A DNA stretch of 64,000 nucleotides, from positions 1,235 to 65,234 of the forward strand of contig JABARV010000013.1 in assembly GCA_019186965.1 (NCBI GenBank), given 5' to 3'. Shown in pieces: positions 3,245 to 3,467 of the stretch. The notes below the pieces were generated by a model. The model saw only the letters and a list, made by a program, of their open reading frames with translations. It did no database searches and had not been told where the DNA came from. How positions within the stretch are numbered: position 1 is the first letter of the stretch; every line of letters starts with the position of its first letter. The translations under genes and the position numbers were made by a program. This stretch comes from Turneriella sp. (GTDB lineage Bacteria; Spirochaetota; Leptospiria; Turneriellales; Turneriellaceae).

Positions 3245-3467
3245 CGCCCAACGTTGGATTTACAAGAAGTTGATGACGCGCTGCACAATAAAAGCAGGCT
3301 TATTAGTTAAGCCGCATACCAAGCGTCATCAATTTGCCGAACCCACAGCGTTGCGCCGCACCGAATGCACGTCCCGTGCGTGCGGCGTCAACGCTTCTTT
3401 GTGGGTGAGGCCGAGCACGCGACCCAACGAAGTGGTCGCGCGCGCAGCTTGTAAATCTTGTTGTCTG
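3245..3467 (-). repeat. attC-like structured recombination site c (subfamily 1)
   Basis: CCAAC-GTTGGATTTACAAG pairs with CTTGTAAATCTT-GTTGT. Hairpins are TTGATGACGC..GCGTCATCAA, CCCACAGCGTTGCGCCGCAC..GTGCGGCGTCAACGCTTCTTTGTGGG and GCGACC..GGTCGC. Confidence 0.8.

Follow-up and report, generated by a model that had tools for sequence, protein, structure and literature searches.

Putative attC-like sites of an integron-like cassette array beside a tyrosine recombinase lacking the I2 domain in Turneriella

Sedentary chromosomal integrons, such as the Vibrio cholerae superintegron with its VCR attC sites and the Treponema denticola integron, are the closest described relatives of the Turneriella locus reported here. 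They carry a tyrosine recombinase gene at one end together with an attI junction, and an imperfectly palindromic site with R (AAC/GTT) and L boxes closes each of their co-oriented cassettes. Crossover takes place in the conserved AAC/GTT, new copies go in beside the integrase, terminal structures vary and can be branched, and the cargo is rich in toxin-antitoxin, defence, and unknown genes. The locus appears to resemble them in each of these respects. As in attC sites, structure is conserved with little other sequence conservation. The discrete mobile cassettes of integrons have in silico counterparts here in a 1190-bp duplication, cassette inverted repeats, and different cassettes at the same position in a related locus (L002).

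The locus is nevertheless not a canonical integron. A typical attC site is a simple hairpin of approximately 57-141 nt whose L box has extrahelical bases, whereas the 14 sites described here span 205-245 nt (about 255-295 nt with their cassette-specific stem extension) and fold into a four-way junction that carries conserved motifs at the junction and in the loops. The R-box complementarity of the cassette ends covers 20-25 bp here and 7 bp in integrons, and some cassettes are multi-gene and reach 9.6 kb. The recombinase lacks I2 and has, at its N terminus, a three-helix domain joined by a disordered linker. Messier and Roy reportedly described the additional domain of IntI in 2001, with the I2 helix near patch III. 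The I2 additional domain defines integron integrases and is seen as the innovation that enabled attC sites to be recombined as folded single strands; intermediates linking IntI to Xer-like ancestors are not known (PMC7790495; PMC4889954). I2 is held to let IntI handle folded attC sites and to avoid a lethal second strand exchange (PMC7790495).

In CTX-phage integration (IMEX), folded ssDNA is the substrate of Xer recombinases that have no I2 helix (PMC7790495). The process is similar to the proposed system in that an I2-less Xer-type recombinase works on a folded strand whose stem imitates a duplex core with an unpaired center. A single strand is exchanged and the product is resolved through replication, which provides a mechanistic precedent for the proposed model. 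Unlike the array, it involves a phage genome and host XerCD at dif, with no dedicated recombinase, cassette array, or branched 200-nt sites. The pdif modules of Acinetobacter plasmids are also gene modules bounded by Xer-type recombinase sites, but those sites are 28-bp duplexes in alternating orientation served by host XerC/XerD, whereas the sites here are co-oriented, structured, about 215 nt long, and accompanied by their own recombinase.

CALINs, as defined by IntegronFinder, are arrays of attC-like sites without a gene that matches the intI_Cterm profile, which represents the IntI-specific domain. The Turneriella array is similar and would presumably be filed as a CALIN if its sites were recognized. 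It is not an orphan, however, because a dedicated I2-less recombinase and an attI-like junction lie at the array end in several genomes. Cury et al. reportedly found recombinases without I2 near attC sites in 2016. The literature search returned no description of integron-like arrays in Leptospiraceae or Turneriella, nor of arrays with I2-less recombinases.

The window, meaning the whole 64,000-nucleotide stretch that was analyzed, contains 14 site copies, every one on the + strand and all between 1000 and 34291, followed by a recombinase gene:

1000 to 1209, + strand: site a
1879 to 2123, + strand: site b, hairpin 3 with an insertion
3248 to 3464, + strand: site c, 217 bases, a complete attC-like element CCAAC...GTTGT
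5612 to 5821, + strand: site d
7135 to 7352, + strand: site e, right arm with a one-base bulge, junction motif GAGGAC
8127 to 8344, + strand: site f
9021 to 9237, + strand: site g, one-base bulge, GAGGAC
9911 to 10128, + strand: site h, identical in sequence to site n
11096 to 11307, + strand: site i
12154 to 12373, + strand: site j
19671 to 19890, + strand: site k
29531 to 29741, + strand: site l, right arm degenerate
30053 to 30257, + strand: site m
34074 to 34291, + strand: site n, the final full site ahead of the recombinase gene
35389 to 36579, + strand: tyrosine recombinase gene, 396 amino acids from the ATG, with the open reading frame beginning at a GTG at 35353 and transcription directed away from the array

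The repeats are best read as attC-like recombination sites of a chromosomal integron-like cassette array served by the adjacent recombinase (35389-36579), with a probability of roughly three in four. A DNA recombination site is favored over a transcript because the copies are co-oriented, are confined to an array that ends at the recombinase, delimit the units that moved, and have no Rfam match. All 14 copies follow the common plan that the first-pass annotation had outlined: xCAAC, a 3-4-nt spacer, a GGATTTAC-type stem, hairpins 1-3, GTAAATC, a 2-nt spacer, and GTTGT. Identity clustering yields at least five subfamilies where at least four had been noted, although these are module mosaics rather than clean lineages. 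The GC contrast reported in the same annotation is present in the repeats (57%) and the recombinase gene (54%) relative to the cargo (47%), but the excess assigned to the 3' two-thirds of the gene is modest (51, 58, and 53% by thirds).

Site orientation is constant whatever direction the neighboring genes take. A search of the window with nhmmer found no further copies outside these 14, and the 28.7 kb beyond the recombinase gene hold zero matches to the repeat HMM. This distribution bears on the idea that the repeats are REP- or MITE-like selfish palindromes, spread by a transposase and merely accumulated here. Such elements would also be palindromic, intergenic, GC-rich, and multi-copy, and the array does include an IS91-family transposase gene. 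They would not be expected to share a single orientation, to lie entirely within the array (over 64 kb) and stop at the recombinase, or to have their own AAC box as the edge of the duplicated unit. The recurrence of array plus recombinase in other genomes and the lack of a REP-associated transposase nearby also speak against selfish palindromes, which make the least probable explanation of all those weighed.

The 14 copies share a fold in which a 5-bp AAC/GTT box is followed by an asymmetric internal loop and then by a 10-11-bp TTTAC/GTAAA stem that encloses three hairpins. The only unpaired features of the outer stem are the 4 x 2-nt internal loop and one bulged C in sites e, g, and l, which bears out the one-base bulge noticed earlier. 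Site c illustrates the anatomy:

3248 to 3252, + strand: left R box CCAAC, which pairs with GTTGT at 3460-3464; putative crossover box
3253 to 3266, + strand: left spacer GTT(G) and L-box arm GGATTTACAAG, which pairs with CTTGTAAATC(T) at 3448-3458
3267 to 3335, + strand: hairpin 1, 13-bp stem AAGTTGATGACGC / GCGTCATCAATTT, loop with TTAAGCCGCATA
3336 to 3411, + strand: hairpin 2, long, imperfect, and GC-rich
3410 to 3418, + strand: junction motif GCCGAGCAC, partly paired with GCGCAG at 3442-3447
3418 to 3440, + strand: hairpin 3, CGCGACC / GGTCGCG with a 9-nt loop
3448 to 3464, + strand: right end, with L-box arm CTTGTAAATC, spacer TT, and R box GTTGT

CGAG(C/G)AC is invariant or nearly so among copies. 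The CCGAGCAC motif had been described as unpaired; it is instead partly paired with GCGCAG, and in sites e and g its C-to-G change is offset by a G-to-C change in CCGCAG (pair 150/169, C-G to G-C). Hairpin 3 has the expected GCGACC/GGTCGC-like form in 9 of 14 copies, while the other five carry a different, imperfect hairpin. Its type I form occurs in four variants, each self-complementary. The AAGCC loop motif of hairpin 1 is conserved, and GTAAAGCC / AAGCC is a plausible, putative extra protein-binding site because the motif is kept in most copies and in both genomes that contribute sites.

The DNA folding z-scores of the sites are negative in all copies and on both strands (from -1.8 to -9.5). 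Site c reaches -65.2 kcal/mol on each strand, with z = -7.7 (+) and -8.2 (-). The main covariation alignment was fitted by hand to the structure and comprises 22 distinct copies from two genomes, namely those of the window and of the homologous locus L009. Pairing is found in 84.6% of its cells, compared with 31-44% when the partners are slid, and double changes occur in 40 of 59 pairs (199 cells). None of 500 shuffles reached any of the covariation measures. The hand fitting is a weakness for the reading of the repeats as recombination sites, yet RNAalifold on a plain MAFFT alignment already shows compensatory changes in 24 of 44 pairs.

The AAC/GTT is invariant in all 22 aligned copies. Compensatory changes affect 5 of 11 pairs in the L stem and 21 of 23 pairs in helices 4 and 5, which form hairpin 2. 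The stem of hairpin 1 takes at least 10 forms that differ in sequence, and each is self-complementary over 13-16 bp; the nine distal pairs of this hairpin were re-aligned by MAFFT and therefore looked at separately, outside the formal count. Compensatory changes in four of four helices, together with the conserved loop and junction motifs, argue for selection on a folded nucleic acid and not on duplex sequence alone, as had been proposed. The + strand has the lower minimum free energy in 11 of 14 copies, and G-T cells outnumber A-C cells (78 versus 48). The + strand of the window is only weakly preferred as the folding strand, since this excess is modest and both strands fold about equally well.

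Covariation cannot tell RNA from ssDNA, and the repeats could in principle act as transcripts, such as small RNAs, processing or stability elements, or insulators, with the recombination context secondary. Conserved loop motifs and the G-T (G-U) pairs kept at two + strand positions would suit such a role. However, Rfam gives no match for the whole window at gathering score or for site c at E up to 1. The orientation is fixed while flanking genes lie on either strand, which places the reverse complement in most cassette mRNAs. The sites have no T-run terminator, and a scan of the attI region (35100-35500) found neither promoter nor terminator. A role as RNA would also leave the ACAAC-bounded duplication, the half-site, and the cassette inverted repeats unexplained, and it is judged highly improbable, only slightly ahead of selfish palindromes.

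The recombinase is a member of the Phage_integrase family (Pfam PF00589, 3.8e-41) with an intact catalytic set; R, K, H-x-x-R, H (H/W), and Y are invariant in 18 homologues. Its best match is XerA (4a8e), to which it aligns in one uninterrupted stretch through the I2 region. Against VchIntIA (2a3v), query residues 306-335 correspond to chain residues 174-244, with approximately 40 residues including I2 missing, and the matches to TIGR02249 and PRK15417 jump model positions ~179-250 (about 70). The protein scores 178 bits against the cut-off of 265 for TIGR02249 and 115.8 against 435 for NF011946, both integron-integrase models, and also misses the Xer equivalog cut-offs (XerA_Arch, 209.8 versus 220; XerD, 171 versus 329.6; XerC, 170.2 versus 335). 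It is thus a recombinase without the IntI-specific I2 domain that falls below every curated family cut-off. The family has an N-terminal extension of approximately 130 residues that is absent from Xer proteins. This extension is modeled as a three-helix domain (pLDDT 89) on a disordered linker, and a Foldseek search of the domain model against the PDB gave no match below E = 1.

These features weigh on whether the locus could after all be a canonical integron, with a true IntI integrase and attC sites unusual only in their length. This would account for the R''-L''...L'-R' plan with AAC/GTT, the co-oriented array with an attI-like junction at its end, and the recombinase gene divergent from most cassettes, as well as for the TIGR02249 match and the C-terminal SPL tail common to the recombinase and VchIntIA. 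Yet that match is below its cut-off and in two stretches, the I2 region is absent, XerA is the closer protein, and the sites are long and branched rather than simple hairpins with extrahelical L-box bases. A canonical integron is therefore very unlikely, although marginally less so than an RNA function.

The cassettes of the array include two identical copies of one unit, the second of which lies in the first position beside the recombinase:

9911 to 11100, + strand: cassette unit copy 1, with site h, a 254-aa ORF, and a terminal inverted repeat
34074 to 35263, + strand: cassette unit copy 2, which adjoins the recombinase gene
35239 to 35263, + strand: inverted repeat that terminates the last cassette; its final bases are the half-site ACAAC (35259-35263), the cassette/attI junction
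35264 to 35388, + strand: putative attI region, from the half-site to the recombinase start codon

The two units are 100% identical over 1190 bp, with both edges exactly at ACAAC, and the boundaries of this recent duplication fall exactly in the xCAAC box at sites h, i, and n and at the attI junction. The duplicate beside the recombinase fits cassette movement, as integrons insert new cassettes there. The array ends at the half-site ACAAC, approximately 125 bp ahead of the recombinase start codon, and similarity to the attC left end ceases after it. The attI-side sequence is partly conserved in L002 (T-TTTTCT-C-GTATTGC...GTCAAGACA), and another version, TCTATTCCCTGC, is common to L008 and L009.

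All cassettes have terminal inverted repeats of 20-25 bp. The right flank of one site matches the left flank of the next at 19.3 of 25 positions in the window and 16.8 of 25 in L009, compared with 11.5 of 25 for the two flanks of the same site. When a core is joined to the far end of its own cassette, the predicted folding energy falls in 23 of 23 cases, by a mean of 13.9 kcal/mol in the window and 11.3 kcal/mol in L009. The cargo is of the kind usual in chromosomal integrons, with toxin-antitoxin pairs, genes for metal and fluoride resistance, defence-like genes, and unknowns. In 10 of the 14 cassettes, the majority, the genes are directed away from the recombinase with a site just 3' of the gene, while four cassettes have genes directed toward it, and some cassettes of 7-10 kb hold many genes. 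An IS91-family transposase gene lies within the array.

In the proposed model, each cassette, on the + strand, consists of a structured core, its cargo genes, and an end sequence that repeats, in inverted orientation, what lies immediately right of the core. Strand exchange would occur within the conserved AAC of the left box xCAAC, and a circle would be released when two successive sites recombine. Within it, the core would be flanked by both ends of its own cassette, and the outer stem would grow from 5 bp to approximately 20-25 bp. Recombination between the site of the circle and the attI junction by the recombinase gene would then insert the cassette in the first position. The folded strand would show two duplex boxes, R (AAC/GTT) and L (TTTAC/GTAAA), split by the asymmetric 4 x 2-nt loop, and this two-box fold would mimic a duplex core site in the manner of the attP(+) hairpin of CTX phage and of attC sites in integrons. 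A scaffold or extra binding determinants are the probable contribution of the three inner hairpins and of the motifs conserved in their loops and at the junction. We infer that the adjacent recombinase does the recombining on a folded single strand, probably by exchanging one strand and leaving the product to be resolved by replication.

The most credible competing mechanism, although still unlikely, is classical double-strand recombination at the left-end duplex core (ACAAC, 3-4 nt, TTTAC) and a similar attI duplex, with the 200-nt palindrome serving otherwise, for example in cruciform architecture, accessory-protein binding, or transcription insulation between cassettes. It would agree with a Xer-like recombinase without the IntI I2 domain, with strands that fold equally well, and with the resemblance between the attI junction (ACAAC-TCC-TTTTCTAC) and the site left end (ACAAC-GTTG-GATTTAC). 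However, variable L-box positions covary between arms approximately 200 nt apart (pairs 11/185, 18/177, and 19/176), and the cassette-specific 20-25-bp flanks are complementary too. Both observations count against it because neither is required of a duplex core site. In addition, the right arm repeats the left core in inverted orientation, yet no inverted elements occur among the full copies (14 in the window, 9 in L009, and 1 in L008).

Several findings count against folded attC-like sites as well. The recombinase has no I2 helix, and strand choice is poorly resolved. The multi-gene cassettes of 7-10 kb are unlike typical integron cassettes, and four gene sets point toward the recombinase. 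Several homologous recombinases also have no array within 10 kb.

The homologues of this I2-less recombinase number 5089 proteins at E <= 1e-20. The layout recurs, with other cargo, at homologous recombinases in three further Leptospirales assemblies. L009, a Turneriella MAG, has nine co-oriented copies upstream of the recombinase, and L008 has one site copy, a short cassette, a half-site, and then the recombinase. The L002 recombinase is 70% identical to that of the window. L002 and the window have an efflux cassette in common, which in L002 is followed by a divergent core and then a different, Lamassu-like cassette; this core is too divergent for the repeat HMM and was spotted by eye. When the repeat HMM was run with nhmmer on 84 recombinase-homologue loci, clear copies were found only in L008 and L009, with a relic in L001 (equivalent to locus L005). 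No array lies within 10 kb of the homologous recombinases in L001, L003, L006, L007, and L011.

Beyond Leptospirales, related I2-less recombinases lie beside repeat arrays bounded by AAC...GTT in two loci. L078, from the planctomycete Fuerstiella, has sites of approximately 140 nt that keep the 2/4-nt spacer asymmetry and the TTTAC/GTAAA L box. L012, from the CPR bacterium Uhrbacteria, has branched sites of approximately 150 nt. The I2-less recombinase of L058, from a flavobacterium, probably adjoins such an array too. L030 has repeats that appear to be coding or to have weak structure, and it is not included among the arrays. A metagenome search with the pattern CCGAGCAC-N18-40-GCGCAGC-NNN-GTRAAT gave 40 loci; the repeat HMM confirmed not one of them, and they were set aside as chance matches.

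Tentatively, and with slightly more doubt than confidence, these loci can be grouped as a multi-phylum class of integron-type capture platforms that combine I2-less Xer-like recombinases with branched, folded sites bounded by AAC...GTT. If such a class exists, single-strand cassette recombination predates I2 or arose without it, and part of the orphan attC clusters (CALINs) own a so far unrecognized recombinase.

The Turneriella platform has every organizational hallmark of an integron, and in silico its cassettes bear signs of having moved recently. Its recombinase, however, is of the Xer-like kind without I2, and its sites are large four-way junctions. The platform is a natural test of the need for I2 in structure-specific cassette recombination and a candidate intermediate or independent solution. 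Whole gene-capture classes may escape tools that are gated by profile and size, such as IntegronFinder, or be labeled orphan clusters by them. The cargo of metal and fluoride resistance, toxin-antitoxin, and defence-like genes shows that the platform stockpiles adaptive genes in environmental Leptospirales.

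The region 3245-3467 holds one complete structured repeat, site c, which belongs to a set of 14 attC-like copies. All lie on the + strand within 1000-34291, and pattern and HMM searches found none in the other 28.7 kb of the window. Folding with DNA parameters gives every copy a common shape, so that the plan of box, spacer, stem and three hairpins described in the first-pass annotation is recovered in each of the 14:

3248-3464, +: site c, CCAAC...GTTGT, the sole complete repeat inside 3245-3467
Terminal box of the fold (R box): 5 bp, xCAAC/GTTGx
Internal loop: asymmetric (left side 3-4 nt, right side 2 nt)
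Outer stem: 10-11 bp, centred on TTTAC/GTAAA (L box)
Hairpins: three, radiating from a junction, with hairpin 1 directly stacked on the outer stem

The minimum free energy of site c is -65.2 kcal/mol on the + and - strands alike, and both strands are far more stable than 200 dinucleotide shuffles (z = -7.7 and -8.2). Across all 14 copies and both strands, z ranges from -1.8 to -9.5. The structured repeat is thus confirmed, as is the structural reading of it.

Covariation of the stems, first noticed by eye, holds in two alignments. RNAalifold finds compensatory changes in 24 of 44 consensus pairs in an unedited MAFFT alignment of the 14 window copies. A second alignment of 22 distinct copies (13 from the window and nine from L009, a locus in another Turneriella assembly) was fitted by hand to the structure itself, and the plain MAFFT alignment agrees with it in direction. 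Here, 40 of the 59 pairs counted change on both sides (199 cells), 84.6% of cells are paired versus 31-44% once the 3′ partners are displaced by 1-3 columns, and the covariation score is 0.385 versus 0.04-0.09 for displaced partners; none of 500 shuffles matches the real alignment on any of five measures. Distal hairpin 1, which MAFFT altered, was inspected directly and apart from the pair count, and it has at least 10 different stem sequences, each self-complementary across 13-16 bp. In silico, this demonstrates a conserved fold under selection for pairing.

Several details of the earlier reading change. The CCGAGCAC motif, thought to be unpaired, is in fact partly paired with a conserved GCGCAG; its GAGGAC variant in sites e and g is compensated by CCGCAG. 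Hairpin 3, taken as a single type with variants, has two unrelated versions in the window and a third in L009. The proposed subfamilies are mosaics of modules: sites j and k combine hairpin 1 of h/n, hairpin 2 of e/g, and hairpin 3 of d/i, while L009 copy s (3104-3325) joins the left half of c/f to the right half of b. Because the elements are mosaics, the interchangeable modules (outer-stem type and hairpin 1, 2, and 3 types) imply recombination between sites at internal points. Copy s has one A-C mismatch in the L stem at the meeting point of its halves. The one-base bulge is seen in e, g, and l, and the repeats are GC-rich as described (57% vs 47% in cargo). For the recombinase gene, the GC excess is weaker (54% overall; 51, 58, and 53% by thirds).

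At the sequence level, three independent analyses (a duplication, inverted repeats, and other genomes) show that the repeats delimit putative mobile units. The array ends beside the recombinase gene, which starts 125 bp past the final half-site and is transcribed away from the array:

35259-35263, +: lone ACAAC half-site, with the usual left-flank sequence before it and unrelated sequence after it

The cassette at 9911-11100 (site h, a 254-aa ORF, and terminal flank) recurs at 34074-35263, adjoining the recombinase gene, with 100% identity over 1190 bp that starts exactly at the left site's ACAAC and stops exactly at the next ACAAC. This looks like very recent excision and re-insertion; re-insertion at attI, the junction between half-site and recombinase gene, with crossover inside ACAAC, would give this outcome. 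In silico, the boundaries place the putative crossover within the left AAC box, delimit a unit of core, cargo, and terminal inverted repeat, and indicate recent duplication into first position. The 254-aa ORF has no functional assignment. The interval 29742-30052 between sites l and m (311 bp) has no ORF of at least 70 aa and is an empty or non-coding cassette; the right arm of site l is degenerate.

In each cassette, the first 25 nt after its site and the last 25 nt before the following site form an inverted repeat. Matches average 19.3/25 in the window and 16.8/25 in L009, versus about 11.5/25 for the flanks of one site and 10.8 ± 3.2 for unrelated combinations. Predicted folding energy drops in all 23 cases when a core is joined to the far end of the cassette it belongs to, as it would be in an excised circle; the mean fall is 13.9 kcal/mol in the window and 11.3 kcal/mol in L009. 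From these two features, the complete site is predicted to exist only in the joined, circular form, with an outer stem of about 20-25 bp. Recombination of duplex DNA at the left core alone does not explain covariation between L-box arms 200 nt apart or between cassette ends.

Related genomes share this organisation:

L009, Turneriella MAG (recombinase match 53% identical): nine co-oriented copies upstream of the recombinase, half-site at the end
L008, Spirochaetota MAG: a single copy followed by a 0.5-kb cassette whose ends are inverted repeats, and a half-site before the recombinase
L002, Turneriella MAG: recombinase 70% identical

L002 and the window have an efflux cassette in common (75% nucleotide identity, terminal flank included), followed in L002 by a divergent core and then a Lamassu-like cassette; the recombinase-side sequence of the junction is conserved. 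In L009 (Turneriella STL-SPI3), a two-gene module at 9069-9634, between the half-site (about 8751) and the recombinase gene, resembles MazE/AbrB and MazF/PemK on visual inspection. A degenerate repeat fragment (...GCGCAGCTTGTAAATCTCGTT) at 7999-8131 (- strand) of L001, about 2 kb upstream of a recombinase homologue in a 4.84-Mb Turneriella assembly with no array there, looks like the relic of a lost array.

The cargo is similar in kind to that of chromosomal integrons. It includes HicB and BrnT/BrnA toxin-antitoxin modules, efflux genes of RND, OEP, and P-type ATPase types, a fluoride module (fluoride riboswitch, CLC channel, DUF190, and extra enolase), HerA-like and WD40 proteins, an IS91-family transposase, and unknowns:

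130-594: C-terminal part of a reverse-transcriptase ORF (RVT_1), left window edge
19891-29530: 9.6-kb multi-gene cassette after site k, resembling a module for fluoride and efflux resistance
26582-27952: CLC channel, in the cassette after site k
27962-28028, -: fluoride riboswitch, in the same cassette
28113-29402, +: extra enolase gene, in the same cassette
30497-31681: IS91-family rolling-circle transposase gene, in the cassette after site m
31924-33936: P-type ATPase gene, beside the transposase gene
36694-37506: dprA, directly following the recombinase gene in the same orientation

The cassette after site k also carries DUF190, EamA transporter, RND, and OEP genes. Class 1 integrons are known to be accompanied by ISCR elements, which are IS91-like. 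At the left edge, a sub-threshold RT-14 RNA motif match at 719-893 (33.7 bits vs 48.1, E = 0.017) follows the reverse-transcriptase ORF; a retron-like cassette, or one of another RT-associated type, may lie here, and the array probably continues past the edge. DprA is an ssDNA-binding recombination mediator of natural transformation. Its position next to the recombinase is intriguing in view of recent work that ties transformation to the shuffling of integron cassettes (PMC12614218), but may be coincidence: the homologue in L001 has other neighbours.

Of the 14 cassettes, 10 have genes that face away from the recombinase, with a site just 3′ of the gene. This orientation contradicts a reading of the repeats as structured RNAs, which also leaves the ACAA|C-bounded units unexplained and fails as a primary account; a secondary RNA effect is still conceivable. 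An origin as REP or MITE repeats fails as well, as the copies are co-oriented and confined to the array.

The recombinase combines a Phage_integrase catalytic domain with a SAM-like core-binding domain, and its catalytic R, K, H-x-x-R, H, and Y do not vary among 18 homologues. It scores below every curated family cut-off: 209.8 vs 220 for XerA_Arch, 178 vs 265 for IntI (TIGR02249), and about 170 vs about 330 for the XerD and XerC models. IntI is defined by its I2 region, both in IntegronFinder and in the field (PMC4889954; PMC9668308), and I2 is described as the innovation that permitted ssDNA recombination (PMC7790495). Residues 306-335 of the recombinase align to chain residues 174-244 of the VchIntIA structure; a stretch of about 40 residues that contains the I2 helix is therefore missing, and the alignment to Pyrococcus XerA is one uninterrupted stretch over this region. 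Instead of I2, family members carry about 130 extra residues at the N-terminus. The N-terminal domain (residues 1-66, pLDDT 89; window 35389-35586) is confidently modelled by AlphaFold as three helices at residues 7-63 (pLDDT about 90), with a disordered linker of about 50 residues between it and the core-binding domain; no fold match was found in the PDB (best E = 1.8). A canonical integron fails on the missing I2 domain, the sub-threshold scores, and the site size and shape.

Integrons, and XerCD acting on the folded attP(+) of CTX phage, suggest by analogy how the system would work. One strand would fold and bring the R box (AAC/GTT) and L box (TTTAC/GTAAA) together as a pseudo-duplex core whose 4 x 2-nt centre stays unpaired. 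The recombinase would then exchange one strand with attI or another site, and replication would resolve the product. The attI junction reads ACAAC-TCC-TTTTCTAC, an R-spacer-L arrangement similar to that of the sites. Integrons are usually drawn with the recombinase on the left; drawn this way, the 'bottom' strand corresponds to the + strand of the window. Three hints, all weak, favour it as the folded strand: it is slightly more stable in 11 of 14 copies, it has the conserved G-T pairs, and its 3′ arm has the bulged base of e, g, and l. Speculatively, the inner hairpins, the conserved AAGCC loop motif, and the CCGAGCAC junction are candidate contacts for the N-terminal domain or a host factor.

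The element most likely serves as a recombination site; its platform resembles an integron but deviates from what defines one. Literature searches turned up no account of arrays like these in Leptospirales and none of cassette platforms whose recombinase lacks I2; Cury et al. 2016 noted and then dismissed a few non-IntI recombinases near attC sites (PMC4889954). More distant I2-less homologues (33-42% identity), which were characterised lightly, also adjoin arrays of co-oriented palindromes bounded by AAC...GTT, the last of these only probably:

L078, Fuerstiella MAG (Planctomycetes), 12166-18338: at least 10 co-oriented sites of about 140 nt
L012, Uhrbacteria MAG (CPR), 598-9870: six branched co-oriented sites, about 150 nt each, lying upstream of the recombinase
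L058, Mesohalobacter halotolerans, 12262-20589: probable array of AT-rich repeats that fold weakly

The L078 sites read ACAAC-AT-GGTTTTTACG...CGTAAAAACC-TTCC-GTTGT and share with the window sites the 2/4-nt asymmetry of the spacers and the TTTAC/GTAAA L box; their R-box complementarity is cassette-specific and spans 12 bp. The L012 sites read TATAAC-GGCCGGCGGC...GCCGCCGGCC-GTTAT. These arrays beside distant I2-less homologues suggest a wider class of systems.
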